Shown here in pieces: positions 3,041-62,750 of a stretch of DNA of 64,000 bases. A program made the translations under genes and the position numbers. The notes beneath the pieces were generated by a model. The model searched no databases. It saw only the letters and a program-made list of their open reading frames with translations, and had not been told where the DNA came from. Position 1 is the first letter of the stretch, and every line of letters begins with the position of its first letter. This stretch comes from Squalus acanthias (taxonomy: Eukaryota), in contig JASTWF010000340.1 of assembly GCA_030390025.1 (NCBI GenBank), positions 310,001 to 374,000 of the forward strand, in the 5' to 3' direction.

Positions 3041-4345
3041 TCCATATTTGTGAACTTCTGTGTACTGTCTGTAGAACTAAACGCTACTGTGGAGTAATTC
3101 AGGCAGCGTTCAGATCAAGGAACTTATATTAACTTCACTTCCTCATTCAGTAAACTAAATTTTGCAAACATCAGAGATACCCGTCTTCAAAGTGGGCGGA
3201 GACTAATGACTTTCAACAAACACAATGCTGCAACTTCCCTTTGTGCTGAGAATTTATCTCTTAATCTCCAGCGTTTTGAATCTCAATTTCCACCGTTAGT
3301 GCCTCCAGCTATTCCATAATGAAGCTCGGCCGTTTGTATTGCCATTCTGTTTCGGGGTATGGCAGCATGTGGAGATCTGTAAAGATGCTCAGTGTTTGCA
3401 CACACACTCCAACCAGCTGTTGTCCTCTGTCTTTCAATTATGGTTTTACTCAGTCACAAAATGGAACTTTTCTGTTCTTTGAACAACTTTTTACGCGATT
3501 TTAAAGCCTTAGCCCCAAAAGCTTATTTTGATTCCTGCCGTTGATAATTGTCAATCTTTACAAACGGATATCTGGATAGAACTGATTTAACGGAATAATA
3601 GAGTCCTCCAGGAGGCCATTTTCCCCGTAGTGCCTGTACAGGCTCTTTGAATGAGCTGCTCAATTTGGTCCCACACCTGAGTATTTTAGTCATCGGCCTG
3701 AAATGTATTGCTCTTCAAATACCTGTCCAGTTGCCTTTTGAAACCGACTGTGGAATTTGATTCCAACACACAGTCAGTTGTGCGTTCCAGATCTTAAGTA
3801 CCCGCTATGTAAAATAAATCTCCTCATTTCCCTTCTAGTTATTTTGCCAATTATTTTAAATCTTTGACGTCTGGTTCCCGACGCACTTGCCTTTGGAAAG
3901 TTTTTCCCTTCCAGAGGAACAAAATAAAATAAGTACTAGAAGCAGGCGTAAGCAAAAATGTTTCAAGTCTCTCACCATTGAAAAAGTCTCCTGCTCTTTT
4001 GTTTTACCGAACTCAGTGAATAACTTCACACTTCCCCACATTGTAATGCATTCGCCATTTTCTTGCCCACTCAGTCAAACAGTCAATATCTCCCTGCAAC
4101 TTCTTTGCGTCCCCCTAACAGCTTACTTTCCCACTTAACTTTGTATCATCAGCAAACTTGGATACTTTACACTCAGTCCATTCATCTAAGTCAAGAAAGT
4201 GGTTGAAGAAAATACCTCAGCTATCTTCAAAATGAAATTGGACGATTACATGAGAGAAATGGGAATAGAAAGATAGGCTGAAAAGCTGAGATTAGGTAGA
4301 TGGAATGGGAAGAGATTCTTACACCGTTTAAAAAAACAGCACGAA

Positions 4346-5150
4346 TAAGAACATATGAAATAGGAGCAGGAGTAGGCCATTCGGTCCCTCCAGCCTGTTC
4401 CAACGTTCAATAAGATCATGGCTGATTTTCTACCTCAAAATAACTTTCCTGCACTATCTCCATATCGCATGATTCCCTTAATATCCCAAAATCATTTGAT
4501 CCCTGCCTTGACGACTGACCCTCCACAGCCCTCTGGGGTAGAGAATTTCGAAGATTCACCACCCTCTGAGTGATGAAATTTCTCCTCAAACCAGTCTTAA
4601 ATGGCCGACCCCTTATTCTGAGACTGTGACCCCTGGTTCAAGACTCCCCAGCCAGGGGAATCATCCTCCCTGCATTTACCCTGTCATACCTGTAAGAATT
4701 TTGGATGTTTCAATGAAATCACCTCTCATTCTTCTAAACTTTAGAGAAAATAGGCCTAGTCTACTCAATATCTCCTCATAGGACACTCTCCCATCACAGG
4801 AACCTGGCTGGTGAACATTTTTTGCAGTCCCACTATGGCAAATATATCCTTTCCTAGGTAAGATGACCAAAACTGTACACAATTTTCCAGGTGTGATCTC
4901 AGCAAGAGCCTATATAAGTGCAGTTAGACTTCTTTACCCTTGTACTCAAATCCTTTTTTAATAAAGGCGAAAGTAACATTTGCTTTCCTTATTGCTCGCT
5001 ATACCAGCATGTTAACTGTCAGTGATTCTTGTACAAGGATACGCAGGTCCTTCTGAAGAGCAACATTTCCCAATCTCTTACCAATTATAAAATACTCTGC
5101 TTTTCATATTACAGATGATAAGTTCACATTTCTCCACATTATATACCTGT
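4346..5150 (-). mobile_element. CR1 LINE 3' fragment with tail
   Basis: AAGAACAT..GAAATAGGAGCAGGAGTAGGCCATTC 3' end; ORF GLFSLKFRRMRGDFIE. Confidence 0.85.
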
Positions 5151-8100
5151 TGGACCGAAGGGCCTATTTCTGTGTATTCTATTTAATTATCTTCTTTTAT
5201 TCGTCGTTGGCAAAGCTAGCATTTGTGGTCCCTCCACTAATTGCCATTGAGATCAGATCAGGTGAGGACAGCAGATTTTCTACCCACGTAAGCCAGATGG
5301 GGTTTTATGACAATTCGATAGTTTCATGTTCACAATTAGTCCAGATTTATTTAATTAACTGAATTTAAATTCCCCAGCTGTTTTGTGGTTGGATTTGAAC
5401 TCACGTCTCATCAGTCTTGTTTGACATGGATTAATTGGAATACTAGTTCAGTAATATTACCACGATGCTACCGTTCCCTTGCTGTGTTAAAACCCATCCT
5501 GATTTAGAATATCTCGATTATGTATCCCCTTAACCTTCCCTGCTCTAATGAAAACAATCCCAGCTTCTCCAGTCTCTCCCCATAACCGAAGCCCCTCATG
5601 CCTTGTACCATCCTGGTAAACCTCGCCCGTACCCTCTCCAAGGCCTTGACATCCTTCCTAAAGTACAGTGCCAGAATTGGACACTATACTCCAGCCCAGG
5701 GATATTCACATATTTAGCATGACTTCCTTGTTTATTGCATTCAATGGCCCCGTTTACACAGCCAAGTATCTCTCCCCTTTCTGAACCGCCTTATATGTTT
5801 GGAGAATGCAGAACGAGGGAGACAAATCTAATATGAAGCCCAACTGAGAGATTAGGAGATATTAGGTGGAATATTAAATATCTTTCTGCATTTGAAGTAA
5901 ATAAAATTTAATGCATTCATAGAAACAGAATGCAGCTGTATCTGATATGCTTTTTTTAATTATTTAGAAATCGTATCAAAAAGATTGCCAAAATATATTT
6001 CCATTCAATTTGTTTGATCACATTTTTGGCTCCCATGCACTGTTGTTACTATCAGGGGGTAGGTTCCTCTGTGTCCGAGGTGAAGCACTGCTTAGCTGAA
6101 ACCATAGGTTTCCATTGTAAGCAGTTGCTCTCACTGTTAACATCAGCCTGAAATGTTTTATATCCTTTACTTATCGGTTATTAATTATCTTCCTTATTCC
6201 ATGCAGATGACACCTGCATCGTGATATTTGTGACAGTAATAACATGATTGTAACAGCAACGGTGTCCATTGAATACAAATACCATTCGTTTCAAATAATG
6301 TAGATTCCATTTCCTCCTTCAGTTTGCTCGAGCTGTCGATGTCACTGACATATAGATCTGCACAGTGGTTGGAGAATAATGTTCTTCAATAAAGATAGTG
6401 CTGCAGATGTTCGTTGTGCTCAGCATTTACACCTAAATCTGTAATTACCAATTGCACAGAATTTTGTATGTGAACCGCCAGGATTCTGTTCCTGCATCTC
6501 TAAGCATTTTGATAATTAAGCTCATATTGCCTGTCCTCCTTATTTATCCAAAATCCATCACTTCACACTTGTCTGCATTAAATATCATACTTTTGGCCAT
6601 CCCCTTCATTACCGTTATCTGTATGTCCACAAATATCTCATCACTTTCATTTTAATAGTTGTTCTCTATTTCCCTTTATGTCATGGATTCTCTGAAGGAA
6701 AGCCAGGTCCTAATACATCTCTGCATTACACACTCTCACAATCTCTGCCTTTGTTCTGTTGGTTAGCATTTCAGTCCTCCAGTTACCGCCTCACCAACCA
6801 GTAGAAACAATAATCAGCGATTTACCAGAACAAAACCCATCATAATATATGTCTCCTACATCAGATCTGCTCCAAACAATCTGTCCGGAAATAAAAATTA
6901 ATTTTCCTCTCCATATATTTTAAGCGACTTGAATTCAATTTTATTAATAACTAAATGCCTGAGAATCAGTCTGCTACTGCATCTCTAATAGTGACTTCCA
7001 AAAGGGAACTGGACAAATAGTTCAAAAACAAAAAATACAGGGCGATGGAGAAAGAGCTGATGGGAGCGACTATTTGGAAAACACCTTCAAAGATTCGGCA
7101 CAGGCATGCTGTGCCAAACAGCCTCCTAACGTACTGACAGAATCTATAATTTTATGATTCTAATTGAGGGGGTATTTGAAAATTTAATTTAATTAATTAT
7201 GCGTTTTCAATGTGTCAGAAAGACTGCAACAATGTATTTTCATTCAATATGTTTGAAGATATTCTTGGTTCCGACGCACTTTTCTTACTGTCAGGGGTTA
7301 ACTTACTGTTTATCCGAGGTGAAGCGTTGTTGAGCTGAAACCACTGGTTTCCTTTATAAACAGTTTCAGTCACTGTCAACGAGAACAACAAAAACAACTT
7401 ATATTTATATAGCGCCTTTAACGTAAAAAATGTCCCAAGACGCGTCACAGGAGTGTTATAATAAAAACAAAATCTACATCGAGCAATATAAGGAATTAGG
7501 GCAGATGACCAAAGCTTCGACAGAGAGTCAGGTTTTAAGGAGCGTCTTAAAGGAGGAAAGAGATGTAGAGCTGCCTGCAATATTTCAAAATTCTTTAATT
7601 ATTGGTATTCAATTTTCTTCATCATTCCATGCCGAAGTCTCCAACATTGTGGAATTTGTGACAGTGAGTAAACAGACTGTAAGAAGGTTCGAATTAAAAT
7701 GAATTGTAACAACTTTGGTTTGTAAATATTAGACTTCACTTCCTCCTTCAGTATGCTAGAATTCACCATATCACTGAAATATAGACCTGCAGTGTGGGTG
7801 AAGATAATGTCCTTCAATAAACACAGTTCTGTGTCGGTCCCTCGTGCTCTGCATTTATTCTTTAATCTCCCTCCTTGTCCTATTGCCAATAATCTTAAAT
7901 CTGTACCAGCTGGTTACTGGTCCTCCGGCAACTAAAAATAGTTTTTCCCCATCTACTCGAGCAAAACCCTTCCTAATTTTTGAAGGCCTCTATTAAATCT
8001 CTGCTTAATCGTCTGTTCTCTAAGGAGCACAATCCCAGTTTCTCTAATCTCTCCACTTGACCGAAGTCACTAAGATTTATGCCATCCGTTCATATACCCC

Positions 8101-8551
8101 TGTTGCCTCCCACAATTCCCTTGGACAACAACCCAAGCGTCACCTGAGGATCTCCTACCTCCTAGCCCTGATCCTGAGTCTGTTCCAGTTTCTCTCCTAG
8201 GTCCACACATGCAATTTCCGTGAATATGTTGACCATGAAACCCACCTCCAGCTCACTTGACTTTATTCCCATTGAACAAAAGATCACCCAACTTCCTTTG
8301 CAGGAGCCAAAACAGTTGTAGTTGGGATTGATCAGTCTCCTCAGGTTTTTTCCTCCTCTTGCAGAACTACCATAATGCAGTTTGAAGCCTCCTATTTCTC
8401 CCAGTTCTTTTGCACTCTGTACCTAAATACGTCCCCTTATTTATAGGAGATGTTATGAGGAATTTTAAATATTTATATTATTTTAAGTGAGTGAATTGAT
8501 TTATATTAATAAATAAATGCAAGAGACTGTGTCTGTTACCTCACCTCTAAA

Positions 8552-8930
8552 AACAACAACAAAAATATATTGTATTTATGTAGCGCCTTTAACGTTGTAA
8601 AACGTCCCAAGGTGCTTCACAGGAGAATTATAAGGCAAAAAATTGTCACCGAGCCTCATAAGAAAAAATAAGGGAAGGTGACCAAAAGCTTGGCCAAAGA
8701 GGTAGGTTTTAAGGAGCATCTTGAAGGAGGAGAGAGAGGTGGAGAGGTTTAGGGAGGGAATTCCAGAGCTTAGGGCCCAGGTAACAGAAGGCACTGCCAC
8801 CAATGGTTGAGCGATTATGATCAGAATGTTCAAGAGGGCTGAATTAGAGAAGCACAGATATCTCGGGGGTTTGTGGGGCTGAAGGAGATTACAGAGAGAG
8901 GGAGGGAGAAGGCCATGGAGGGATTTCAAA
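8552..8930 (-). mobile_element. L2/CR1-group LINE 3' end (shorter copy at ~7383-7575)
   Basis: ORF KSLHGLLPPSLCNLLQP..SFKMLLKTYLF; tail GTGAAGCACCTTGGGACGTTTTAC..GTTGTTG. Confidence 0.7.
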
Positions 8931-9669
8931 ACCATATAGTTTGCAAAGTATTAATTATTCAGTATAAATGTATTATAAACTTTGTCACAATGTATTTCCA
9001 TTCAGTATATTTAAACACATTCTTTGGTTTCAGGCACTTTTTTTACTGTATGGGGTAAACTTCCTGTTTGTCCGAGGTGAAGAGTTTCTGAACTGAAACC
9101 ATAGATTTCCGTTCTAAGCATTTGCTCTCATTGTTAGCCTTAGCTTGAAATATTTTCATTTTTTTTAATTCTCGTTCTTAAATATTTCTTCCTTCTTATG
9201 TGCTGATTACACCCGCATTGTGATATTTGTGACAGGGAGTATACTGACTATAAAAGTATCGGTTTCCAGTGAATTCTAATGTTTTAGGCACAAGGGCACA
9301 TTTTGTTAATTGCCTTGGATTATTGGAATGATATGCAAATGAACATCTCGATAGAATTTATTCAGTTATGTTGAGTGAATCCATAACAAGGGGGCAGGAT
9401 ATTAAAACTACTGCCAGATAACTTGGAGTAAAAGCAGGAAGTACTTTCTCACACAAATTGTAGTGTAAATCTGGAACTCTCTGTATTTAGTGTCTGCCTA
9501 CATTATGATGTCATGTTCTGGAGTGGGAGCTGAACTAATAGCAGCCAGAATGTCACCAACTCAGTCACACTGAGAAATGTCCATAAAAAAATGCACGGCA
9601 GTCAGTCTGTATATTGATCCTCGAAAGATATTGCTGTTCAAATAACTGATTCATATTTTCTCTTTTTAG

Positions 9670-9702
9670 TGGTTTTTGGAGCTCGGAGAATCGTTTCTCA
9701 AG
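9670..9702 (+). CDS. Ig-receptor gene 1, signal-peptide mini-exon S2 ((V)VFGARRIVSQ)
   Basis: ttttctctttttag|TG GTT TTT GGA GCT CGG AGA ATC GTT TCT CAA G|gttagt; 33 nt, phase 1-1; completes a signal peptide with an S1-type exon like 59115-59145. Confidence 0.65.
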
Positions 9703-12700: not shown

Positions 12701-15338
12701 TTAATCCCTTCGTCCAAATAATAATATATAATGTAAACAGCTGGGGCCCCAGCACCGAAACCTGCGGTACCCCGCTGGTCACTGCCTGCCATTCTGAAAA
12801 GTACCCATTTACTCCTACTCTTTGTTTCCTGTGTGCCAGCAAGTTCTCAATCCACGTCAACACATTACCCCCAATCTCATGTGCTTTAACTTTGCACACC
12901 AATCTCTTTTGTTGGACCTTGTCGAAGGCCTTCTGAAAGTCCAAATACACCACATCTACTTGTTCCCCCCCGTCCACCCTATTGGAAATATCCTCAAAAA
13001 ATTCCAGAAGATTTGTCAAGCATGATTTCCCTTTCACAAATCCATGCTGACTTGGACCTATCATGTCGCCACTTTCCAAATGGTCTGTTATGACATCTTT
13101 AATAATTGATTCCATCATTTTACCCACCACCAAATGTCAGGCTGACAGGTCTATAATTCCCTGCTTTCTCCCTCTCTCCTTTTTTAAAAAGAGGGGTTAC
13201 ATTAGCCACCCTCCACTCCTGCGGAACTGATCCAGAGTCTAAGGAATGTTGGAAAATGATCGTCAATGCATCCACTATTTCCAAGGCCACCTCCTTAAGT
13301 ATTCTAGGATGCAGACCATCAGGCACTGGGGATTTATCAGCCTTCAGTCCCAACAATTTCCCCAACACCTTTTCCCGACTGATAAGCATTTCCCTCAGCT
13401 CCTCCCTCTTACCAGATCCTTTGATCTCTTTTATTTCCGGAAGGTTGTTTGTGTCCTCCACAGTAAACACCGAACCAAAGTACTTGTTCAATTGATCTGC
13501 CATTTCTTTGTTCCCCATTATGACTTCCCCTGTTTCTGACTGCAGGGGACCTACATTTGTTTTTACTAACCTCTTTCTTTTTACATATTTATAGAAGCTT
13601 TTGCAGTCCGTTTTAATGTTCTCCGCAAGCTTCCTTTCATATTTTATTTTCCCTGCCCTAATCAAACCCTTCGTCCTCCTCTGCTGAGTTTTAAAGTTTT
13701 CCCAGTCCCTGGGTTTGCTGCTACTTCTGGCCAATTTGTATGCCACTTCCTTGCTTTTAATACTATCCCTGATTTCCCTTGTTAGCCATGGTTGAGCCAT
13801 CTTCCCTTTTTTATTTTTACGCCAGACAGAGATGTACAATTGCTGTAGTTCATCCATGCGATCTCTAAATGTCTGCCATTGTCCTTCCACTGATAACCCC
13901 TTAAATATCGCTTGCCAATCTAACCTCGCCAATTCACGCCTCATACCCTCAAAGTTGCCCTTATTTAAGTTCTGGACCATGGTCTCTGAATTAACTGTTT
14001 CCTTCTCCATCCTAATGTAGAACTCCACCATACTATGGTCACTCTTCCCCAAGGGGCCTCGCACCACAAGATTGCTGATTAGTCCTTCCTCATTACACAA
14101 CACCCAGTCCAGGATGGCCTCCCCTCTAGTTGGTTCCTCAACATATTGGTTTAGGAAACCATCCCTTAAACACTCTAGGAAATCCTCCTCCACCGTATTG
14201 CTTCCAGTTTGAGTAGCCCAATCTATATGCATATTAAAGTCACCCATGATAACTGCTGCGCCTTTTTTGCATGCACCTCTGATTTTCTGTTTCATATCCT
14301 CCCCCACCCCACTACTACTGTTTGGAGGTCTGTACACAACCCCCACTAACGTTTTCTGCCCTTTGGTGTTCTGCAGCTCAACCCATATTGATTCCAAATC
14401 CTCCAAGCTAATGTCCTTCCTAGCTATTGCATTAATCTCCTTTTTAACAAGCAATGCTACCCCACCCCCTTTTCCTTTTATTTTATCCTTCCTGAATGTT
14501 GAATATCCCTGGATATTCAGTTCCCATCCTTGATTGTGCTGGAGCCACGTCTCTGTAATCCCAATCACATAATGGCCCAAAAATTCATCCTGGTGCGCGA
14601 GAGTACGCACTGCGTACACTCGCGTATTCCCTCTTCAATTGCCGGTTTTCTGCATGCACTACGCATGCGCTGAAAACCGGCACTTCATGTCTGGTCAGTT
14701 TCATGGATATGCGAGTAATCGCGTGGGCTGGTGATTCTGCGCGTGCGTCGGAAAATTCATGTATTTTGTGAATGAGAGTAGTGTGTGTAAGCTCCGAGCA
14801 GTTACACATTTTAAAACCAGGAGCAGCAGCCATTTATACATTTGCCGAGATAAGTAGGAGGAAGAAATCCTTTTGGAGTGTGGCTACTGAGGTGAGTTTT
14901 TTAAATTTGAAAGACACAAAAGTTTTAAATGAAGTCTTATATAAGTTAAGAGTTTAAAAAAAAAAATTTAAAAACGGGTTTTGACCATTTGGAGTAGTAT
15001 AGCAACTGTGGGTGTGTACAAGGCATATTTAGGTATCTATCTGTGAAAATGAAAGTTTAAAAATGAACTGTTTACGTTTCAAAAAGTTTTAAAGATGAAA
15101 ATGAGTAAGTAAGTAAGTATGTATGTATGTATGTATGAATTTATGAAAATGTTACAGGTTTGGAAAATCAGCTAGGGCCGTGTGGCGGGTAGATGTGTTC
15201 CCAAGCTGATAGCGCACGTGTCCCACCATAGCCTGACCTGATTTTATAGCCACTCACTTAACTAAAGTTACTTTAACAACTATTTCCATTTTTTCATTAC
15301 AACTTTCAGTTTGAGGAGGAAGCCTGTGTGAGAGAAAG

Positions 15339-16490
15339 ATGCCCTTTTGCAATCGATTGTTCTTCCTCCTCTGTGTGATTACGTATCTGAGAATTTTCGA
15401 ATACAGACAACGAATCAGACGGAGGAACCAAGCCCGTCTCCTCCAGAGAAGGAGAAACTACTACCCACCAAATAGAGTGTACAGGCAGAGGCTGTCATTT
15501 GAGATGCTGTCGGAGGAGCTGTGTGTGAGGAGGCTGCGCTTCAGTAAAGAGTCAATTGGCCGAATCTGTGAGATGTTACAGGAGGACCTTCAAACACGCA
15601 CGAAGAACCGCAATGCATTGTCACTGAGCATGAAGGTAACCACAGCACTGAACTTCTTTGCAAGTGGGACTTTTCAGGCAAGCACCGGTGACATTTGCAA
15701 CATATCCAAGAATGCTGCGAGGGCCTGCATTCACCAGGTCACAGAAGCCATTTACCGTAGGACTTCTGAGTTCATTAAGTATGACTTGTCTGCTCGCCAT
15801 CAAAAGGAGATGGCGCTTGCATTTCATAACATTGCTGGATTCCCCAAAGTGATTGGGGCTGTCGATGGAACCCATGTAGCATTGAAGGCACCAGGGGTTG
15901 CACCTGTGACATTTATCAACAGGAAGGGGTTTCATTCACTGAATGTCCAGATTGTCTGTGATGCGCATCTCAGGATCTTAAATGTGAATGCAGGTAACCG
16001 TGGAAGTAATCATGACTCCTTCGTCCTCCGTAACTCTGACTTATATGGCGTCCTCAACGCATTGCCTCCAGGATCCGCATGGATATTGGGCGACAAGGGC
16101 TACCCGCTAAGACCATGGCTGATGACTCCCTACCGCAAGACCAATAATGAGGCTCAGGAGAGATACAACCAGGCACACGTGTCCACACGGCAAGTGGTGG
16201 AGAGGACAATTGGAGTTCTGAAATCACGCTTCCGGTGCCTGGACAGGTCAGGGGGGACCTTGCAGTATTCTCCTCAGAAAGTGGCAAAGATTGTGGTGGC
16301 CTGTTGTGCTTTGCATAACTTTGCCCTGCAGGAAGGACTGACCCTTAACGCTGCAGATGAACTACCTGCAGAAATGGAGGACGTGGACAATGCCAATGTG
16401 CCTGTGGGAAGGCATGATGTGGAAGAGCCAACTGCTGCTCAAAGTAAGGCTGCAAGGGAGCAGCTGGTAGCCAACACCTTCACGAGGTAG
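15339..16490 (+). CDS. Harbinger DDE transposase (HARBI1-like family), 383 aa, uninterrupted
   Basis: ALNFFASG HTH region; catalytic motifs VIGAVDGTHV, NRKGFHSLNVQIVCD, GSNHDS, ILGDKGY, RQVVERTIGVLKSRF, ACCALHN; probable 5'UTR intron 14892-15309. Confidence 0.95.
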   Translation: MPFCNRLFFLLCVITYLRIFEYRQRIRRRNQARLLQRRRNYYPPNRVYRQRLSFEMLSEELCVRRLRFSKESIGRICEMLQEDLQTRTKNRNALSLSMKVTTALNFFASGTFQASTGDICNISKNAARACIHQVTEAIYRRTSEFIKYDLSARHQKEMALAFHNIAGFPKVIGAVDGTHVALKAPGVAPVTFINRKGFHSLNVQIVCDAHLRILNVNAGNRGSNHDSFVLRNSDLYGVLNALPPGSAWILGDKGYPLRPWLMTPYRKTNNEAQERYNQAHVSTRQVVERTIGVLKSRFRCLDRSGGTLQYSPQKVAKIVVACCALHNFALQEGLTLNAADELPAEMEDVDNANVPVGRHDVEEPTAAQSKAAREQLVANTFTR

Positions 16491-16500
16491 TGTCGCCTTG

Positions 16501-16620
16501 TACCTCCCGCTCCCCCTCCCCTCTCCCCCTCCCCCTCCCCTCTCCCCCTCCCCCTCCCCTCTCCCCCTCCCCCTCCCTCTCCCCATCCCTCTCCCTCTCC
16601 CCCTCCCCCTCCCTCTCCAC
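16501..16620. repeat. (CCCCT)n polypyrimidine tract in the transposase 3'UTR
   Basis: Direct reading; G-runs on the minus strand. Confidence 0.9.
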
Positions 16621-17123
16621 CAGCAAGGCAAATAAAGGTACAGACACAATTTAAAGTGAAACAGTGCTCTTTTATTGCAGCATTACAGACTTCTGAGGTT
16701 CATTGTTGCTTTACATAGTTTATAACTTTTCAATGTTAACTAGCTACTTTTCAACTTTGTAAACAATCGTAAACAGAAATAGGTTTTTCAAAAATTTGTT
16801 AACAGTTCTCAGTAACTTTTTTGCTTCGTTAATGCAGTAAAGACATTCAAGATGGGAAATAACTCTTTCCTATATGTAAACAAGTTTAAATGTTCAATTT
16901 TTTTGTGAAAATAAACAATTTGAATTTTTATAAAGTGACTAAAGGCTGTACTTTTTCAATGAAAAGCTAACTTTCAGTTTCAGTGTCAAATATATATATA
17001 AATAAAGAAAAATGTAAACATGTAAGTTTTAAATAAAACTAAAAAGTAAACACTTGAGAAATTTAACCACAAATAAACTATTCCTGAGGGTCAATGGATG
17101 TGCATTGTGGAACATGCAACACC

Positions 17124-18674
17124 CTAACGTCTCTTGCGCTTTCTTGATTGCATCATCGTTGGTGGCTCTTGGACCTGCACTGATTCTGCGCTGGGAGCAG
17201 GTAAGGTTGGTTCTGATGGAGTCACAGTAATTGCAGCAGAAATTATTCGCATGAGTCCTTCAAGAGACTCATTTATTTTACTAAGCTGCACTCCCACCAG
17301 TCCTTCAAGAGACTCATTTAATTTACTAAGCTGCACTCCCACATCGGGTTTCTGCAACATTCCTTCAAGAAAATCATTTATTTTACTAAGCTGCACTCCC
17401 ACATCGGGTTTCTGCAACATTCCTTCAAGAGACTCATTTATTTTACTAAGCTGCACTCCCACATCGGGTTTCTGCAACATTCCTTCAAGAGACTCATTTA
17501 TATTCTTAAGCTCCATTCCCAGATTTCCCAATCCCTGCTTGACCAAGGTAAGACAATCAACTTCTTTCTCTGAAATAGAAGAGATCGATTGAGTCAAGCC
17601 TACAAGTTGGTGGATGTCACCATGCATCTCCTGTTCTGCTGCATATATATCTGTGTCTCCCACAGGCACTGTAGTATCAAGCTGCTGTCTGTTTGGCACA
17701 GAGCCAGAGGGGCCAGGAGTTGGAGAGGAAGATTGAGAGGACCTCTCCTGCAACCCAGATTCCAGAACCTCCATGATTAATTCAGCAAAAACTTCCTCCT
17801 GCTGCTCCTCCACCAACACCTCACTCGCATCTCCCACTGGCTCAACATGCCCTTCACCAATGACCTCTTCGGCTGCAGACTCAACGCACTGCTCATCCCG
17901 TGACTGAGAAGTATGCTCTAAACCTATGTAAAGGAAACAGTAAAGATTAGCAAAGGTAAAGCATGATGTGCCACATCACAGAAGCTATTCAGCACACATC
18001 ACCTTTGTCGAATCGTTCATTTCCAAAGGGACATCCGCTAAGATATCCAAAGATATGCTCGAGCCTTTCCTCATGTTCGGTTAAAGCCCTTAACATGACA
18101 ACACCACCGCCTGTCAGTGAACGTTCTCTGGCGTTGTGAGCAGTTTTACTCTAAAATTGAAAATGAAAATCTGAAATGTAAGGGTTTTTACACCAAAACT
18201 GCATTGGCACTCACACAGTTAACTCAGTAAGCAACTCAAAGCATTTCAATCAAGATGACATTAGCATTTTATGAGACTTGCCTGGCTACAAAAGCCACAA
18301 AAATTTATGGTAGCATCTTGTGACTTCAGTTAACTCAGCTTAGCAAACAAACACTTTTTCAAGGCTTTTCATTTTAAATGTAAAGACATTTTAACATTGA
18401 CTTTTGTTATAACTATACAAACCTTCAGCGTTCGATATAAATCGCTGAATTTTTTGCGACATTGCTCAGCTGTACGTGGAATGGTCGAGGTTGCGCTCAC
18501 ACTTTGAGCAACCTCTTTCCACGCTGCCATTTGGCCTTTTCGCGGCGGCTTGGACTTCTGAGTTCCAATTATCCGTGAACGTTTCGATTCTACCTCGTCA
18601 AGAAGTGTACGGAGATCATCATCACTGAAATTCTGTGTTCTTTTGATAAATTGGATAGTGCTGATAGCAGCCAT
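17124..18674 (-). CDS. Harbinger Myb/SANT (MSANTD/trihelix-like) DNA-binding protein, 3 exons (18674-18423, 18150-18003, 17923-17124), 399 aa
   Basis: NFSDDDLRTLL..AWKEVA..RTAEQCRKKFSDL; exon 2 SKTAHNARERSLTGGG; GT-AG introns of 272 and 79 bp; 252+148+800=1200 nt open; C-terminal RKRKRR. Confidence 0.88.
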
Positions 18675-21334
18675 TTTCGTTTGCTGATTATAAACAGTTA
18701 AATCTCTGAAAAAAATGATTTCTGTACTTTTAAAAGTACTTAAATTACTTTAAATCTCTTTGCAAATGTTTAACATTACTCAAATTATACTAAAAATCTT
18801 TAAAAGTTTACAAAACCATGCATTTAAAACCTACTTACTGCAAATTCCACCTGAAACAGTGAGAAAACTGTGTCTCCAGCAGCTTTACAATGGCTTCAGT
18901 GGAGAAAAAAATCGGGGGCGTGGCCTATGGAAAAGAGACCTTAATGGGCGTGTCTTCACTCCACATCGCACGCGATGCAACGCGCACGCTGCGCTGCAGG
19001 GCAGTGTGACGTCATACGCTTCCCTGCACTCAATCAGCCAGAAGATGAATTTTCAACGTGGAAAAGAGGAAACGGCAGACGCGGTATGTATTACCGCGCC
19101 TGCTCCTTACACCCGCGGGAACGGAGCCAGATGAATTTCTGGCCCAATATCCGTTAACATCAATTTGCACAGTCAATTCATCCACCTTATTACGGATAAT
19201 CCTTGCATTAAGACACAGAGCCTTTAGGCTTGTTTTATTAACACACTTTGTCCTTTTAGACTTATGATTTAATATGGCCGTTTGTGTTTCTTGCCTTTAT
19301 TTACTCGGATTTCCCTTATTGTTTCTCACCCTTCTCACATTTGTTTCTGACTGCATATTACTTCCCCCTGTTTCGCTACATAGGTTCCCATTCCCCTGCC
19401 ATATTAGTCTAAATCCTCCCGAACTGCCTTAGCAAATATTACCCCGAGGACATCGGTTCCAGTCCTGCCCAAGTGCAGACCGTCCCTTTTGTACAGGTCC
19501 CACTTCCCCCAGAACTGGTTCCAATGCCTCAGGTATTTGAATCCCTCCCTCCTGCGCCACTGCTCAAGCCACGTATTTAATCTCGCTATCCTGTTCATGC
19601 TACTCTGATTAGCATGTGGCACTGGTAGCAACCCAGAGATTACTACCTTTGAGGTCCTACTTTTCAATTTAGCTCCTAGCTCCCTAAATTCTGCTTGTAG
19701 GACCTCTTCCCGCTTTTTACCTATATCGTTGGTACCTACATGCACCACGACAGCTGGCTCTTCACCCTCCCTTTCAAGAATGTTCTGCAGCCGCTCCGAG
19801 ACATCCTTGACCCTTGCAGCAGGGAGGCAACATACCATCCTGGAATCTCGGTTGCGGCCACAGAAACTCCTGTCTATTCCCCTTACAATTGAGTCCCCTA
19901 TCACTATAGCTCTACCACTCTTTTTCCCGCCCTGCTGTGCAGCAGAGCCAGCCATGGTGCCATGAACCTGACTGCTGGTGCCTTCCCCTGGTAGGTCATT
20001 TCCCACAACAGTATCCAAAACGGTATATCTGTTTTGGAGGGAGACGACCGCAGGGGACTCCTGCACTACTTTCCTGATATTGCCCTGCCTCTTGGTCACC
20101 CATTTACTCTCTGACCTAGTCTTTACCTGCGGTGTGACACAGGCTCCTGCGCCTGCTTTCAGTAACCGTAACATTTTCGGACATAATTGCTGGGCAGTTG
20201 GTGGGCAATTAGCCCAAATCTATAAAATATTTAGTATTTCGCCGTCGGTGCGGATCATCTGTCAAGGCGAACCTTGACAGATCGCTGGTTCGGGATTTAG
20301 CGCATACACAAGCACATGCGAAAATCACGAACTTGCGGTAAATTTCAAAGGTGGTATGACGGATGCTCTCTGAGTAGGTCGTCATGCCCACTGCAAAATC
20401 TGCCCCATTAGCTTTAGAGGGTGTGCAGCGCAGATTCACCATAATGATACCGAGGATACAAGGGTTAAACTATGTTGAGAGGTTCTATACTCCTGGCTTG
20501 CATTTCCTCGAGTACAGAAGGTTAAGGGGTGATCTAATTCAGGTGTTTAAGATGATTACAGCATTTAATCTGGTAGAAAGAGAGAAACTATTCCGTCTGG
20601 TGGTAGAGTACAGAACAAGGGCCCATAACATTAAAATTAGTGCTAGGCCCTTTAAGGGTGATGTCAGGAAACTCTTCTGTACACAAAGAGTAGTGGAAAC
20701 CTCGAACGTCACCCAACAGTCGGTTGGGAATAGGGCAATTGAGTATTTCCAAACAGAGATTGATAGATTTTTATTAAGCAAGGGTATTAAGAGTTACAAA
20801 ATCAAGGCATATCGATGGAGTTCGGATATCGATCAGCAATGATCGAATTGAATGGCGAAACAGGCTCATGGAGCTGAATGGCCGAGTTCTGTTCCTATGT
20901 TCCTGTATCCTTAATCTTAGACGTTCCTTAGATGTCCAAAAGGTGCATTTGCGCCATCTTTCGGTGAGCAATGGCCTCTCTAAAGCAGATGACTAACATT
21001 AATTCCTTTTCTATTTTGGTAGAGCATAAATTCATAGCCTGATACAATCTCGCAAAACTGTAATAGGCCATTCCACCCGTCCTGACTGTGAAGGCTCTTT
21101 GAAAGTGTTGTACAATTGAATCCCACAGCCCAGCTTTTACTGTAAAGCTGAAAATTAGCATCCTTCAAGTACATGCCCAATTGTTTGTTCTTATTGAATA
21201 TTTTTTCACTATCTTTTCAGATAGTGCTTTTCCAATTCTAAAAATCATCTGTGTGAAAAAAATTCTACTCCGGTCCCGGTCCCTTTTACTTCTTGTCCCA
21301 ATTATTTTAAATCACTGACCTCTGGTTAAGGCAC

Positions 21335-31861: not shown

Positions 31862-31994
31862 GTGAGTGAAAGAGAGCAGAGATTTCTCATTTTTTTCATC
31901 ACTCTTCGTATGTTTATAAAATCAGGATTTAACCACTGCAACTGAATTAATGGTTTAATATTAGGAGAGAGGAAAACAACAGGATTGGTTTTAA

Positions 31995-41452: not shown

Positions 41453-41542
41453 ATAAACCCTTTGCGATGGAGGCTGGTGTTGGCTCTGCTGTGGGTCTGA
41501 TTCTCATCCTTGCTCTGTTGAGTTTGTGCTTCTGGAAGAAAG
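41453..41542 (+). CDS. Ig-receptor gene 1, transmembrane exon
   Basis: tttag|ATAAACCC...AAAG|gtgggt, 90 nt, phase 1-1; DKPFAMEAGVGSAVGLILILALLSLCFWKK. Confidence 0.88.
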
Positions 41543-46153: not shown

Positions 46154-47207
46154 GTAAGTTATAAATGCACTGCGACGTTATTGTTTCCATTGATTTTGTA
46201 TTTTATCTCGCTCATTCCTGCTCCTGGAAATATGTTTCCAAATATGTTGTTGCTTTCTCTCACAGAGTTCTTGTTCTTTTGATATGTCACAATTGTCTTG
46301 TCCAGTAATTAATATTCATGAGGCCAAATACGTTTTTGATCACACTTCAACAGGTCTTAAAACGGCGACAGAAAAATGTCCAATAAAGAATAGTGAACGG
46401 ATATCTGTTTGTCTAAGCGGATTGAACAATTTATTTCCAATAGAACACGAATCTTTGCAGGGTGAGGCGTAGATTTGCTCCCGCTATAGGAACTGAAGGG
46501 AAATGTCAGAGTTCAATTACCACGAATGCAGCTGCAAATACACTCCTGTTCAACCGAATCTGGACAGTGTACAGCAGTTACAGTTTAACTCTTGGTTAAT
46601 GTGTGGAATATGCAGAGCATTGTGATGTAAACAAGAATATTTTCAATTTCCCCACTGAACCGGTGTGCGGTTTCCAGGTCTTACACCCACCATCGTTGTA
46701 TCCGCCTGGAATGTTAAGTTGTCCCTTCATTTTCTGATGCAGTCAGAAATAGCCGCTGGAACCTTTGAGTTAGAGTGGGCGAAAACGGTGATCTGGATTC
46801 AGCCGTCCATTGTAAACCCTCCCAATTTCCCTTTGCATCGAAGTCAATGTGACCGGTGGCCGAACCCTTATCGCCCCTTTAGCGCCTCTGATCAAGTAGA
46901 AAGTTCCTACCGCTCTCTGTTTCCAGCATCTCCTGTTTCCCTGCTGCTGCTCGAGAGTCCCTTCTTCCTTTTAAACAAACAGCATTACCTGAGGTGATTA
47001 CTTCATCTGAAAATGTAACTCTCAGCAGACAGTTAATACCCTGTAGAGCAGCGGAATATTCCCCATTAACCACTGCTCAATGGAACAACGCCGCTTTTGA
47101 CATTTTCGGCTTCTGCCGCGAAGCATCTGCTGATAGAATTTCGCTGAACTGTTACCAGGGTGTAGTTGTTCGATTGAATTTCTGACCAATTGCACCGTTT
47201 ATTTCAG

Positions 47208-50127: not shown

Positions 50128-50200
50128 GGGGATGTCGCTCAGTGTTAGAGCGCATGCTTTGAATGTACGAGATCTCGTGTTCTAATCTTAAGCCTCTCCA
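50128..50200 (+). pseudogene. tRNA-Ala-derived pseudogene (anticodon mutated to TGA, T-arm broken)
   Basis: GGGGATGTCGCTCAGTGTTAGAGCGCATGCTTTGAATGTACGAG..CTCCA vs vertebrate tRNA-Ala(TGC). Confidence 0.8.
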
Positions 50201-51945: not shown

Positions 51946-52336
51946 ACGACGGAAGCGGATACACGCAATGTTTTCAAGGGGGGACTGGATCGGCACTTGT
52001 GGGAAATCAATTTGCAACACTACGGGGATAGAGCGGGTGAATGGGACTGACTGGTTGGCTCTACAGAGAGCCGGCACTGTCTCGATGGGCCAAATGGCCT
52101 CCTCTGCCCTTAGACTCTATGACTCTACGATCGGATTGGAGCACAGGGAATGTTCAACCGGGAAGTTTGGAATGGCGAACGGGTAAGCGGCTTAGCGATG
52201 GTGTGTGCGAGAGTGGCAGCAAGCGTGGCGCGGTCATTAGATTTTAAGAAATCGAAGAAAGGTTTCATCGAAGTCTCAGATGTTGAAACTCAAAACACAA
52301 CATTTTGCAGAAAACTATGGTGAAAAATTTACATTT

Positions 52337-52408
52337 TGGGGCTGTTAGAGATTGAACCTGGCACCTCGCACATGCGAAGCATGCACTCTACCACTGAACT
52401 ACACCCCC
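52337..52408 (-). pseudogene. tRNA-Ala(CGC) probable pseudogene
   Basis: GGGGGTGTAGTTCAGTGGTAGAGTGCATGCTTCGCATGTGCGAGGTGCCAGGTTCAATCTCTAACAGCCCCA; G3:U70 lost, T-stem mispaired. Confidence 0.8.
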
Positions 52409-52669
52409 AACCGATGATTTGAGGCATTGAAAGAGAGACGGATTGGGAGCCTTACATTTCCAATCTCCATTTGTGTTCCAGGTCTGTGCTGAAGCAGGAG
52501 CAGCTGATGCAACTGTGGGTGAAGAGAAGAATTCTGGCTTCGTCACTCCGAGAAAGAGAAAGGGGAAATGAGAATGAAGACTTGTAGAATTGTTTGGCCT
52601 CTTCGTTCTTGGATAAAGTAGACTGAGAGGAGAGCTCATGTAGGCCTTGAACATTATGGAGGTGTTAAA

Positions 52670-56530: not shown

Positions 56531-57199
56531 ACAAGCGGAATCTCCCGTCCGATAAATTCTAATGATATGACTGGACTTCATCATAAATGTTAAACGTTCA
56601 GAGGAGCAGAACTGAAAGAGCTAAATGGCACAAAATGAATGATGTTAACAACAGTTACCAATAAAATATGTCATGGCATTTATTGCATAACGTGCCCTTG
56701 ATGTCGTTACTACACTTAATAAAAATAACAACACTTATTAACATGATAACGAAGCTAAAAATAGACAGAGGACTCAAACACATATATACATTCTATTCAC
56801 AACCACAAATACATAGAATACACAACAACTTTAATTTAAATATTTTTAGACTATTGTTAAAAGCATTCTTTCTATTCATCTGTCCATACTTATTTTTAAC
56901 CCTATGCCTTTAAAACAAACGTTTTCAATTCTCATCGTGATATAAAAATCCATGGCCCCTTCCCTCCCCATCACAGTTACCTTCTCGAGCCCCACAATTC
57001 TCTTTCTTATGTTCAAATCCCACCATGGCCCCGCCCCTCCCTATCCCTGCAAACTCCTCTAGCCCCACAATTCTCATCCTTATGTTCAAATCCCTCCATG
57101 GCCCCGCACCTCCCTATTTATGTAACCTCCTCCAGCCCTACAACCCTCCGAGACCACAGCAATCATCAAATTCTTGCCTCTTGGATATTCATTACAACA

Positions 57200-58935
57200 G
57201 GTTTCCATGTAACACAATCGCTGTCAGTTTCAGGATGTTCCAGTTTTCTTTTTAATCAACTGCAACGTAAAATGGACAACATATCCGGAGCTAACGGCAT
57301 CTCACTCAAATCGATCGCAGGATGTTTGTTCAGCCAATTAGAGGAACAATGAGCGATACAAAATATAAAATTAAAATGCTGGATCGATACAGTAGGTGGC
57401 GCTCTTCTGAGGTATGGGTTGAGTCACTTTGTTGTATTTTACTGACCTGCGCATTCGTTTCGAGCGGGAAACGGTTAATTCCCAACACTGGAGTACCTGA
57501 CCATGATGGGAGCTAATGTTCTAACACAGCTCAAATGATTGACGGTGTTGTTCTGAGTGCATAGTCCAATCTGGAACCTTCATTCAGTCTAATATTCAAA
57601 TATTATGATGTTATACATTGCAACATTCCAATTCAGTGATATGATGGGTCGAATGGCCTCCTTCCTCTTGAACATCCCTCATTTTCTGCACTCCACCTCT
57701 GACGGCCTTGTCTTCAGTTGCCAAGGACCTAAGGTCCGGAACTTTTTCCCTTAAACTCTGTCGAATTTTGATTTATAATCGCTCCTGTGAAGAGCCTTGG
57801 GACATTTTACGGCGCTCCATAAATGCTTGTTGTTGCTTTTGTTGATGGACAGGTATTCTGGCACACTGAGTATCAGGGATTCACTGCTTCAGGGAATATT
57901 AACAGTTCCTATTACCCGTCAGACGCGGTCCTGGTAGAAGAAATATCAAACTCAGACTCTTTTTACCAAAGCCCCTTGTTATTGTGATTATTAATGAAGT
58001 TTCAGACTCGGTGAACTTATTGAACCAACGGGGGAATGTGTGGTTCTTGATGAAATCGCCCTTGATTTTGAGTGAAGGTGTTTAATGCACTTATTTAATT
58101 ATACTCGTCTAAACTAAACCTCTTCTTTGCGGAAATGTGAGCTCCCAGTCACAGTATGATATGGTTCGGCATGGCTGTGGAGGTGAAAGCGGTTAAGGAA
58201 CAGAGCTGCACAGATTCTGTTCCGCATTTTAATTCAAATGTTTCAAATGAGCATTCTCAGTTTCGAACACATCTCTAAATGTGTCGGTGCATTTCAGCGG
58301 AGGCCATTACAGTTCTCTTCTACTGAGGAGAGATGGAATGTTGCACCATAACATCATTAGTTTTGTTTTCACCATCATTTCCATGATGGAGATAGTATTT
58401 GAGGAAGACGGTAGAAATCAATCAATTATTATCAACAGTAAACCAGCTCAATATGGGATTCATATTAAACATACCCGTGTATTTTCACTATACCCGATCT
58501 CCGTGTAAAAATACTGCTGTCAGTTTCTGGATGTTTCAGTTTTCTTTTTAATCGACTTCAGCGTAAAAGCAGCAACGATTCTGGAGCAAACCGCATCTCA
58601 CTAAAGCAGCCCAAATGATGGAGGTTTAACGAAATTCAGAAACGATGATCTATACAGTAGGGGGCGCTCTTCTGAGATTTGTGTTGATTCACTTTGCCCT
58701 TGTATTTTGCTATAGTGCGCATGACTTTTTAGTGTTTGATGCTGACACTAAGAGGCTGAAGGGGGAAACGGTCTCTTGCAAGCACTAGAGCTCCTGACCA
58801 TGTTGAGAGATGAGGCTCTAACTAAAGACAAATGATTGACGGTGCTGTTCTGGGTTCATTGTCCATTCTAGTCTCCACATCCTGAGATAACTGTATGAAA
58901 TTTAAATGTTCCCATGTTGAACCTTGCAAAGTTCC
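57200..58935 (+). repeat. ~430-bp direct duplication (57200-57635 and 58497-58935) upstream of gene 2
   Basis: Shared GCTGTCAGTTTC.GGATGTT.CAGTTTTCTTTTTAATC, CAAATGATTGACGGTG.TGTTCTG and a CTCF-like motif. Confidence 0.85.
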
Positions 58936-58939
58936 AATC

Positions 58940-59114
58940 CTTATTTAATTGTGGTGCGATTGCTTTAATTGTGGGGCCACCTCACTTCCTCTCAGCCTCT
59001 GTTTCAGCTCTCATTCTCTGAACGCTTCCAGGTATGACCATCCTGGAGGGGGAGCAAGAGACTCAGTCGCCATTCCTTACAGCTCTCTTGTCTGAAAGTA
59101 GCTCACTCTAGAAC
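58940..59114 (+). promoter_or_regulatory. Candidate TATA-less leukocyte promoter of gene 2
   Basis: RUNX-like TGTGGT at 58950-58955 and PU.1/ETS box CACTTCCTCT at 58983-58992, ~130 bp before the ATG. Confidence 0.5.
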
Positions 59115-59145
59115 ATGTACACAGCCGCCTTGTTACTGATGTTTG
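59115..59145 (+). CDS. Ig-receptor gene 2 (tandem paralogue), signal-peptide exon S1 (MYTAALLLMF)
   Basis: AACATG start, 31 coding nt, G|gtgagt phase-1 donor; downstream intron 60200-60900 is homologous to 3044-3750. Confidence 0.7.
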
Positions 59146-60745
59146 GTGAGTCGTGAAACAATGTTTTACCTAAATTACTGCATTCCAGTTCTTTGAAGTA
59201 ACTGAGTGGGCAAATATAAGCGTTAGAGCGGGACTGAGCCCGGCAGTGTCCGATCTCCAGTAGCTCAGTGGATGACAGCAACTCCTAGTTTGGTGTGAAG
59301 CACTTTAGATTGGAAAGCTGTCGGAGCGGATACTTGTTTGTGCAGAATTCTCAGTTGGTAACGTTGAGAGAGTGCTACTGGTTTTAGTTTTCGGGAGAGT
59401 TGGGTGACTTAGGGCGGAGAGCGAACTGAGAGAGTGCCCGCTGCTGATCGTTACCGTGTGGCTCCATTGTGAAATGTTGATAAGCGGATGTCCATTGAGG
59501 AGACTGTCAGGGTCCACGTTTATACCTTCTGTAATCAGACTTTTCACGGACACACAGCGTCTGAGCTCAGAAATGGAAAGTGTCTGCTCTACCCAAGTGT
59601 AAAACAGAAAAGCGCCGCCCTTACAACCGTGTTCCAGGGTGAATCGCCTCCTTTATAAAGAAAGGGAAAGGATTAGACTTATTGAAATAAAACGGTTACA
59701 TTTGTGCCTGTCAATGCACAATACAAGCTGATTAGGTTGGAGGTTTCACAAAGATTTTCACTTGAACTAAATGTTCTGCTGTCGGCTCTGTAAAGCCTGT
59801 TAATTTGCTGAACAGAACAGGAATGCTTCCAGTGGGCAAAAGAAAATCCCTTCCTGCCGGCACAGACACGATGGGGCGAATGATCTGCTACTGTGCCGTA
59901 CGCTTATATGATTCTAGGTTTCAGGTGATTTAGAGAGAGAAAGAGGAGTAAAAATATTTACAGTCAGTGGATATTCCAGTTGACATATTTGTAGTTCTGC
60001 CGTTGGTTCTGCGACACGGTTGTTTCTGTGAGAAGCTTAGTTCCTCTTTCTTTGAACTAAAGCTCCTTCGATTTGAAACCGCTGCCTTCCGGTATGACAC
60101 TTAACTGTCCTTGTTCTCTGCAGTACTGACCATTTTCCCTTTGTTGGTTTATTGTTCATTGTCTTTGCCATCTTGCATCTCAATTTAAGGCGCCTTGTGA
60201 TATTTGTGTGCGTGTGTGTACTGTCTGTAAAACTAAAATTTTCTGGTGAATAATTCAGGCAGCTTTCAGATCTAGGAATTTATTTTAGGGCCACTTCCTC
60301 ATTCAGTGTGCAGGAGCTGAACATTTCACTGAGATATAGATCTGACAGTGAGCGGAGTCTAATGTCCTTCAACAAACACAGTGCTGCAGCTAACTTTTGT
60401 GCACAAAATTTATCTCTTAATCTCCATCATGTTCAAGCTCAATTCCCACCGTTAATGCCTCCAGCCATTCCATAATGGAGCTCCGCCGCTTGCATTGCCA
60501 TCCTGTTCCGTGGTATGGTCGCATGTGGAGATCTGTAGAGATGCTCAGTATTTGCACATGACTCCACCCAGCTGCTCTCCGTTATCTTTCACTGATGGTT
60601 ACACTCAGTCACAAAATGGACCGTTTTTGTGTCTGATCATCATTTAAAGCTGGTTTGTGTCATTAGGCCCAAGGTACATCTTGATCCTTTCCCTGGATTA
60701 TTGGAATTGTTTACAAACGGTCATCTCAATTCACCTAATTTAATT

Positions 60746-62750
60746 AGAATCATGGAATCTTACAGTGCAGAAGGAGCCATTCGGCCTGTCCTCCCTGTGT
60801 CGGTTGTTTGAAAGATCTGACCAAATTAGTCCCAGCCTGGACCATTTTACCCTTAACCATGCAAATTAGTGCTCTTCAAGTAAAAATCCAATGGCCTTAT
60901 GAAAGTTCCTATGGAATCTGATTCCACCTTCCTTAATGGTGGTGTGTTCCAGATCATAACAACCTCCTGTTTCAAATATTTTCGCATCATTTCCCCTCTC
61001 GGCGTTTTTAACATTATTTTTAAATCTGTGACCTTTGTTTGCCGACCCACTTGCAAGGGGACAGAGTTTGTCGCAACTTGCTCTGTCAAAACACCATATC
61101 ATTGCGAGTACCTGTATCTGGTCTCCCACTGGCATGTTCTGTTATAAGGTGAACAATTTCAGCTTCGCCAATTGAGGTCCCTCATCCCTAGTATCATCCT
61201 GGAAACCTTCTCTCTATCCTCCAAAGTACTTGACATCGTTTATAAAGTGTGGTGCTTAGACTTGTTCACAAAACTCCAGTTGAGGCCTAACCAGTGATTT
61301 GTAAGTGTTTGTCATGACTTCCTTGTTGTTGTATTCAATGGGTGTTTTTTGAAAGCCAATCATCCCATCCACGTTCTATACTGCTTTGTCAAATTGCCCA
61401 GCCACCTTCAATGATTTGTGAGTATGTTCACCCAGTTCCCTTCGCTCTTTTACCCATTGAAAATATTGTCATTTACATTAAACTGCCTCGCCATATTGTT
61501 TCTCCAAAAGTGCTTCACTGCACAGTTAGCCGCAGTAAATTCCATCTGGCATATGTCTGTCCATTTCACCACTCAGAATAATCCTCCTGAAGTCTGCTGC
61601 TATCCTGCTCACTATTTACAACTTTGCCAAATTTAGCATCAAACGCAATATTGGAAATTTTATCCGATATACACAAGTCCAGGTCATTTTTATATAACAG
61701 AAAAATCAATGGTTTTAACACCGACCCCTGGGGTACACCACTGCTTACTTCCACATGGTCAAGACAACATCTGTACAACACTACTATCTGCCTCTTATCT
61801 CTTAGACATTAATGAACTCTATTCACCACCGTCCTTTTAATACCACGTGCTTCTACTTTTCCAGTGAGTCTGTTATGTGATACATTATTGAAATTCTAGA
61901 TACACAACATCTACAGCATTCCCTTCATCAACCCGCATTCCTACTTCATCAAATAACTCAATCAGGTCAGTAAAACACGATTATACTTGAACAATTTACT
62001 TTAATACTGGACAGATGGCTCTCCCTTATTAAACCATGCCTCTGTAAATGAGAACTAATGCTGTCAATGACTGTGGTTGTCAGTAGTTTTCCCACTGCCG
62101 AATGTAGACTGATTAGCCTGCAGTTACCAGGTTAATCGCTCCCCCCGTTTTTGAACAGTCAGTGACATTTACAATCCGTCAGTCCTCTGGCAACACTCCC
62201 ATTCCCAAGGGGGGTTGGAAGACTATGATCAGAACCACTGCTATCTCCACCATTGCTTGCCTCAGCAATGCAGGATGGATCCCATATGGACCGGGAGACT
62301 TGTTATCTTTGAGAGATTCCAACACATTTATCACCTCCTTTCTACCTATTTTATTGTATCCAATATATATACTCCCCATCTTCTACTGCAACTGCAACCT
62401 CTTCTTTTGTGAAGACAGATGCAAAATACTCATTCAGTACCTCTATCATATCATCATCCTCCAGAAGAATATTTCCTTTTTGACCCAAATCGGCCCCACT
62501 ATTACCTTAACTATCTATTTAGTTTTTATATGTGAAAGAGTGTTGTATTCCTGTTAATGTTAACCGCTAATCTGTTTTCGTAATCTCATTTGCCCTTCTT
62601 ATTTCGTTTTTCAATTGCCGCCTGCACTCTCCGGATTTTACGGGTTATTCTGCTGCATTCGTGAACTTGACATTTGTCATAAGCCTGCTGTTTCTGTTTA
62701 GTTTAAACCGTATTCGCTTGCTCACCCAGGCACTCTAGCTTCTGAAGCCC
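60746..62750 (-). mobile_element. Old degraded CR1 ORF2 (further fragments at 62780-63370 - and 63720-63880 +)
   Basis: SGVPQGSVLKPLIF, KSPGPYGIHPALL; 3' end sits at the same position as the CR1 tail at ~3600 in the paralogous intron. Confidence 0.8.

Follow-up and report, generated by a model that had tools for sequence, protein, structure and literature searches.

Does the DNA shared by the two ends of this stretch mark two neighboring receptor genes, and if so, to what family do they belong? The window, by which we mean the whole stretch of 64,000 nt analyzed here (Squalus acanthias, assembly GCA_030390025.1, contig JASTWF010000340.1, positions 310,001 to 374,000, forward strand), carries one predicted leukocyte receptor gene (gene 1, 9670 to 47273, + strand) and, at approximately 59 kb, the start of a putative second one (gene 2). 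A sequence-only reading had proposed a whole-gene, head-to-tail duplication with a period of about 57 kb, within a multigene and possibly paired activating/inhibitory cluster. Overall, our results make it probable that the two are head-to-tail neighbors, in an old tandem arrangement, of a cartilaginous-fish family of paired leukocyte receptors with C2-type immunoglobulin (C2-Ig) domains.

Gene 1 consists of nine + strand exons with AG acceptors, matching phases, and, except for the last, GT donors; eight of them match inhibitory receptors of Heptranchias in position and sequence. The leader mini-exon S2 (9670 to 9702, 33 bp, VFGARRIVSQ, phase 1-1) agrees at 8 of 10 positions with the Heptranchias protein P0185. 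It is followed by the C2-type Ig exon D1a (29338 to 29628), which is open and above the Pfam cut-offs for Ig_2 (E = 6e-10) and Ig_3; by D1b (31568 to 31861), with intact splice sites and an in-frame TAA at 31699; and by the membrane-proximal Ig exon D2 (37896 to 38192), which shares 68 to 69 of 96 to 97 positions with Heptranchias and is above the Pfam cut-off for Ig_C19orf38/HIDE1. The transmembrane exon (41453 to 41542) has an uncharged core and matches the Heptranchias inhibitory type at 21 of 29 positions. Next come the cytoplasmic exons C1 (42466 to 42493, 28 bp) and C2 (44236 to 44279, 44 bp); C3 (46113 to 46153, 41 bp) matches Heptranchias at 9 of 13 positions, and the last coding exon, C4 (47208 to 47273), was located through similarity to the Mustelus tail, with a phase that fits. 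A first immunoreceptor tyrosine-based inhibitory motif (ITIM; ITYTVL) straddles the C2/C3 junction, a second (VIYAAV) lies with the stop codon in C4, and AATAAA-type signals are present 3' of C4 from 48233. With its split leader, D1-type and D2 Ig exons, uncharged anchor, and two ITIMs, gene 1 is, as predicted from these exons, of the inhibitory type. An open frame at 46194 to 46472 and, at 59072, a word resembling an ITIM were also considered as the last exon and set aside because C4 matches the homologous tail and fits the phase.

Next, the shared DNA was located by self-comparison of the window and then by finer alignment with shuffled controls. Positions 3044 to 3890 matched 60200 to 61054 with 72% identity over 865 columns (E = 9e-128), and the finer alignment reached 3905 and 61069 (634 of 852 columns; score of 744 versus a best of 36 in 30 shuffles). 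The match first reported between 3044 to 3750 and 60200 to 60900 is real, and its repeat tail does lie at the same position in both copies, although its ends were set too short. The locus-specific part of the gene 1 segment (3044 to 3590, + strand) is 78% identical to 60200 to 60743 (420 of 538), and these first 546 bp match only the two intron-1 regions, with nothing between approximately 9.4 and 59.8 kb. A decayed intron unit, confined to the same two regions, is represented in part at 3044 to 3300, by three copies across 5956 to 9381 on the + strand (5956 to 6440, 7192 to 7870, and 8951 to 9381), and again at approximately 59950 to 60750. Beyond the main segment of gene 2 (60200 to 61069, + strand), two more + strand blocks are collinear, each with 71% identity: 5478 to 5792 with 61077 to 61387 (block 2) and 6917 to 7254 with 63651 to 63981 (block 3). 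Both are mostly derived from repeats, and block 3 continues from a tail of a long interspersed nuclear element (LINE) into the locus-specific unit. The collinearity of the copies extends to no more than 20 bases from the window end. We read the shared DNA as an old paralogous intron 1.

The evidence did not bear out a clean duplication of the whole gene at a period of 57 kb. The offset between the copies drifts from 57,156 to 55,599 and then to 56,734; positions 1 to 3043 have no counterpart at 57157 to 60199, where the best match covers 25 of 28 bases; the place that a strict 57,156-bp period predicts for a first leader exon of gene 1 (approximately 1960) is LINE DNA, with no such exon nearby; and, as described below, closer copies exist elsewhere. 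At an offset of about 57 kb, only positions 1 to 6844 can be compared within the window.

The second start rests on the leader exon S1 (59115 to 59145, + strand, 31 bp, MYTAALLLMF), which runs from an ATG to a phase-1 GT donor, 1,055 bp before 60200. No other exon on either strand of the window combines an ATG, a hydrophobic stretch, and a donor. Across the six frames of the window, S1 gave the top score to the Mustelus leader (32, the next being 25), and it scored 27 against the Heptranchias leader, whereas no more than 17 was reached in 200 shuffled windows. In P0185, the natural leader agrees with S1 at 6 of 10 positions and with S2 at 8 of 10. The identification of 59115 to 59145 as a signal-peptide exon is thereby upheld. 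The joined leader made from this S1 and the S2 of gene 1 is a construct and corresponds to no molecule in the window; nevertheless, since both halves match P0185, it is a plausible signal peptide for the family. A genuine S1 followed by a collinear intron 1 likewise supports the proposal of a second, same-strand paralogue starting at about 59 kb. The S2 of gene 2 would be expected approximately 2.4 kb past 63981, outside the window, so that the start of gene 2 is seen and we infer the remainder to lie beyond. As for the upstream and 5'-untranslated region of gene 2 (58273 to 59114, + strand), the part at 58478 to 58869 has an older duplicate (65%) at 57182 to 57572. Words resembling Ets/PU.1 (CACTTCCTC) and RUNX (TGTGGT) sites occur at 58950 to 59000, upstream of S1, and we take them to be similar to leukocyte-promoter motifs.

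To place the locus within a family, relatives were collected by a profile search, in which 28 proteins, 26 of them from sharks and a sawfish, were found among 8,000 scored candidates. A class count over 51 proteins (isoforms included, two short fragments excluded) gave 24 with a neutral anchor and ITIMs, 9 with an arginine (Arg) anchor and a short tail, and 18 with neither; the 559 matches of a representative search did not enter the counts. The activating form, with a charged anchor, short tail, and similar ectodomain, was thus seen in 9 of 51 proteins, all of them relatives, and not in the window. In Heptranchias, 15 proteins on one contig of 6,061,764 bp reduce to 12 loci once labeled isoforms are collapsed: 5 inhibitory, 3 of the Arg type, and 4 without an anchor. 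Mustelus has an Arg-type and an ITIM-type protein under consecutive accessions on a contig of 525,727 bp. In the Carcharodon model P0006 (XP_041035994.1), an Arg anchor at residue 259 is followed by a second leader-like stretch near residue 350 and then by a full ITIM receptor; the model appears to be an annotation fused across two same-strand neighbors, one activating type and one inhibitory type. When D2 domains are placed in a tree (30 rows, 97 columns), receptors of both types sort together by lineage, with Heptranchias joined to Pristiophorus (support 100/97) and Mustelus to Scyliorhinus (100/96). The D2 of gene 1 is nearest to Heptranchias (71%), with no small clade supported around it. 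These sharks bear out the suggestion of a multigene, paired activating/inhibitory family; within the window itself, tandem arrangement is represented by one gene and a second start. A metagenome scan with the family alignment returned 128 pattern matches and no relatives, and a protein atlas queried with the family protein P0021 returned generic Ig clusters alone.

Sequencing reads were also considered over copy 2, by comparing positions 57200 to 61400 with contigs from 4 runs, out of 16 listed, at a likeness of 80%. Summed contig depth, which is not a copy number, was 50 to 250 in most bins upstream of 59033 in run X1, 530 to 1,840 over 59033 to 59737 and 60020 to 60724, 2,346 to 3,247 over the LINE fragment at 59738 to 60019, and 80,642 and 198,770 in two bins of dispersed repeats; run X5 gave the same pattern. 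The contrast, at least 40-fold, agrees with a family of low copy number rather than with a genome-wide repeat. At most of the listed sites between 59193 and 60154, a differing letter was carried by 7 to 23 contigs in X1 and 4 to 15 in X5. Where contigs cover the promoter, S1, and intron, the longest of them share 85 to 89% identity with copy 2, compared with 78% for gene 1, which indicates that copy 2 has paralogues closer than gene 1. In run X16, taken by guess to be RNA, a 997-nt contig fits 58965 to 59145 with 23 differences and exits at the S1 donor, leaving 797 nt unplaced; DNA contigs run across this donor (59145). The X16 contig is consistent with a spliced transcript of a paralogue. 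No piece of the S1-donor type was listed in run X14. At 59376, 59408, 59585, 59707 to 59739, and 59984, all X1 contigs and all or most X5 contigs have letters unlike the window, which may mean that the reads come from another individual or species or that gene content varies.

Several of these observations weigh against two neighboring genes. The Ig, transmembrane, and tail exons of gene 2 are all absent from the window and would fall beyond 64000, and no S1 of gene 1 was found in 1 to 9670. Blocks 2 and 3, being mostly repeat-derived, could match partly through family likeness. The shared contig in Heptranchias is deduced from equal contig sizes, gene order and strand not having been seen. 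The X16 contig represents a paralogue (87%) and is a single contig from one run with a guessed label, and there are several sites at which no contig agrees with the window, so that copy 2 itself was not seen, although this does not prove it absent. Finally, the missing S1 and the stop in D1b together mean that gene 1 may be a pseudogene. The codon at 31699 is TAA in D1b and CAA in D1a; D1b is of phase 1-1, so that its skipping preserves the frame and its inclusion would truncate the protein. An allele, a pseudo-exon, and an assembly error are all candidates for this stop, which lies outside the range of the read comparison. D1b derives from an intragenic duplication of about 2.2 kb (28311 to 29764 versus 30488 to 31992), and the ratio of nonsynonymous to synonymous rates between D1a and D1b is 1.13 (95 codons, 8.5 synonymous and 30.5 nonsynonymous changes), a value at which neutral decay and diversifying selection are not separable.

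Such decay bears on the alternative that copy 2 is an orphan 5' fragment, a remnant of partial duplication or of deletion that comprises the promoter, S1, and a portion of intron 1, with no complete second gene behind it. Local decay is indeed frequent. In addition to the D1b stop and the missing 5' end of gene 1, a third D1-type exon (36199 to 36352, + strand) is truncated, with its acceptor region and first bases (stub near 36343) broken by repeat DNA, and two inverted, decayed Ig exons of the same family lie on the - strand in gene 1 introns, one at 28793 to 28953 and the other at 31016 to 31135, within the 2.2-kb duplicate, the relic having been copied along with it. Moreover, 4 of the 12 Heptranchias loci are without an anchor. 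However, although the introns have diverged by approximately 22%, S1 still has an ATG, an open frame, a hydrophobic core, and a GT donor, and the collinearity continues almost to the end of the window, so we consider an orphan fragment unlikely.

A rearrangement or assembly join at the other end of the window would mean that the 37-bp minisatellite at 2371 to 3038 (18.4 copies) links unrelated DNA to a 5'-truncated gene 1, in which case the spacing of the copies would mean little. The similarity to copy 2 does begin abruptly, just 3' of the minisatellite, and positions 1 to 3043 resemble nothing near the start of gene 2. Within them, inside GA-rich DNA (660 to 1570), an exon-like stretch of 40 bp with a strong acceptor and a GT donor lies on the - strand at 1163 to 1202; it had no match among the fetched relative proteins and may be part of another gene cut off at the minisatellite. 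In the same direction, a read query with 28900 to 38300 found part of it in 13 of 16 runs, the best DNA runs containing just 58 to 62% of the sampled words; no RNA run was listed as containing it. Yet a join would affect the 5' end of gene 1 alone; the exons from S2 to the stop are ordered and in phase; the divergence between the two introns is too great for a haplotype duplicate; and insertions could equally have displaced S1 upstream. We therefore regard this explanation as improbable.

There remained the possibility that the shared segment is a dispersed repeat inserted twice by chance, next to an unrelated exon at 59115. The LINE 3' tail that makes up the last third of the segment (3590 to 3905, - strand) begins at an identical junction in both copies, but its family is dispersed, with 10 matches within the window, and over 3592 to 3905 the two copies are no closer to each other (69%, 214 of 312) than to an unrelated dispersed copy at 54427 (68%). 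Translated on the - strand, the tail resembles the C terminus of an RVT_1 open reading frame at 39375 to 40931 (E = 0.003 in pieces, 2e-8); we take both to be of the CR1 type. A dispersed distribution applies to this tail alone and not to 3044 to 3590. The other 546 bp are confined to intron-1 regions, are low in depth compared with true repeats, and come after a leader exon that belongs to the same family, in the order to be expected; this explanation is largely refuted and most improbable.

Having preferred two tandem neighbors, we compared their family with known receptor systems. RefSeq proteins of sharks annotated automatically as "Fc receptor-like protein 5," "IGSF1-like," "LILRA," and "KIR3DL1" belong to the same family as gene 1 (Heptranchias perlo XP_067836598/613/669; Mustelus asterias XP_078060531/532; Carcharodon carcharias XP_041036009-023). 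They share the leader, D1-type repeats, D2, anchor, and two-ITIM tail, with D2 at most 71% identical. Their names are best-hit names, and gene 1 differs in having just two D1-type exons, one with a stop.

Among members of the leukocyte receptor complex (LRC), we considered LILR/PIR, KIR, LAIR, OSCAR, GPVI, NKp46, chicken CHIR, and Xenopus XILR. The likeness lies in phase-1 C2-Ig exons, a split leader, and ITIM and Arg-anchor forms in one cluster; the top single-domain scores were to LILRB (14.9 bits for D2, 17.5 bits for D1a). For D2, 13 of 14 PDB matches at E ≤ 0.005 were LRC members, with single-domain scores of just 15 to 21 bits; for D1a, the non-LRC protein LRIG1 scored nearly as high (16.6 bits). 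Most LRC genes have an S2 of 36 bp, and the shark S2 differs in being 33 bp. None of the LRC marker genes TTYH1, LENG8, RPS9, TSEN34, and CNOT3 was seen within the 64-kb window. An acidic residue stands at the end of the shark Arg anchors, a feature also given for the LRC in the accessible part of PMC6557307; domain scores are weak, however, and the Arg lies within S/T/I-P-I-R and not in NxxR as defined there, with no Asn three residues before the Arg in any of the nine Arg-type proteins.

The FcR/FCRL family (human FCRL1 to -6, Xenopus XFL) is similar in its two-exon leader, variable Ig-exon repeats, and paired forms, as far as the available text of PMC2413239 describes them. According to the same text, leader exons are 30 and 21 bp in mammalian FCRL1 to -6 and some XFL; the shark exons are 31 and 33 bp. 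FCRL5 was the top whole-chain match for D1a and the family profile, a score that sums many domains, and its best single domain (11.3 to 11.7 bits) fell below LILRB. Whole-chain scores favor FCRL5 and PIR-B. Teleost LITRs are alike by description, being paired C2-Ig receptors that lie in clusters and combine domains of FcR-like and KIR-like character (PMC2413239, in part). By analogy, the shark family resembles the paired clusters of LRC and FCRL, and it is assignable to neither because its leader exons are 31/33 bp, its Arg is outside NxxR, and single-domain and whole-chain scores disagree.

Signaling by ITIMs through SHP-type phosphatases is established for LILRB, KIR, and FCRL. Gene 1 would signal in the same way as LILRB, KIR-L, and FCRL, by tyrosine phosphorylation and SHP-type phosphatases, and its short-tailed siblings with an Arg anchor might signal through an FcR-gamma-like adaptor. 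In LRC receptors and in those of Xenopus, a membrane Arg has been shown to pair with an adaptor (PMC6557307 and PMC2413239, in the sections available); the FcR-gamma chain was not found in sharks, according to the accessible portion of PMC4016189. The cluster may have grown and decayed by unequal crossing-over (birth and death), which could also have left the duplicated D1 exon, the D1b stop, and the inverted exon relics. The promoter and S1 of gene 1 would lie upstream of the window or have been lost at the minisatellite. Ligand leads, by analogy, are major histocompatibility complex (MHC) class I and immunoglobulin Fc.

More tentatively, the family could be the cartilaginous-fish descendant of a common ancestor of LRC and FcR/FCRL, in which fixed ITIM anchor-tail and Arg-anchor modules have been swapped onto lineage-specific ectodomains, with shark receptors for MHC class I or immunoglobulin Fc among its members and a KIR-like variation in gene content between individuals; we hold this to be possible but doubtful. 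If it were true, the origin of LRC/FCRL-type paired signaling would move from bony fish to the jawed-vertebrate ancestor. A 2014 survey, in the part available, found neither FcRL nor LRC homologues in sharks and dates both families to bony fish (PMC4016189), and a 2019 paper calls the time of LRC origin unclear in its accessible text (PMC6557307). Genes labeled fcrl3 and fcrl5 are mentioned for bamboo shark B cells in the available part of PMC11372145, their relation to the present family not having been checked; that of PMC13262535 gives KIR/LILR as mammalian, and that of PMC6795676 holds nothing on the shark receptor family. We found no description of this family in the literature covered, which left out most subscription journals, and a prior description is possible. 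Tandem duplication itself is ordinary for paired-receptor clusters, and RefSeq already contains predictions of these genes, though under names that mislead. With a clustered and paired family present across sharks and in a sawfish, there are now concrete candidates for the inhibitory and activating leukocyte receptors of sharks, and both their ligand (MHC class I or the Fc of IgM, IgW, or IgNAR) and their synteny become directly testable.

Other elements were noted in the window. A Harbinger/PIF-like DNA transposon spans 15315 to 18749, with a 391-amino-acid DDE_Tnp_4 frame (+ strand, E = 1e-42), a Myb/SANT-like frame (- strand, 18372 to 18749), and a frame of 283 amino acids at 17127 to 17975; the frames look open. 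The introns of gene 1 hold long open LINE frames on the - strand, namely, the RVT_1 frame at 39375 to 40931 and an endonuclease frame at 13123 to 14634, and the C1-C2 intron contains an AC-rich minisatellite of 38 bp in 22 copies (42792 to 43620). Between the two receptors lie two tRNA-like genes, at approximately 50128 to 50200 (+ strand) and at 52336 to 52409 (- strand), the latter called tRNA-Arg(tcg) by ARAGORN; by eye, both are presumably decayed copies of tRNA-Ala.

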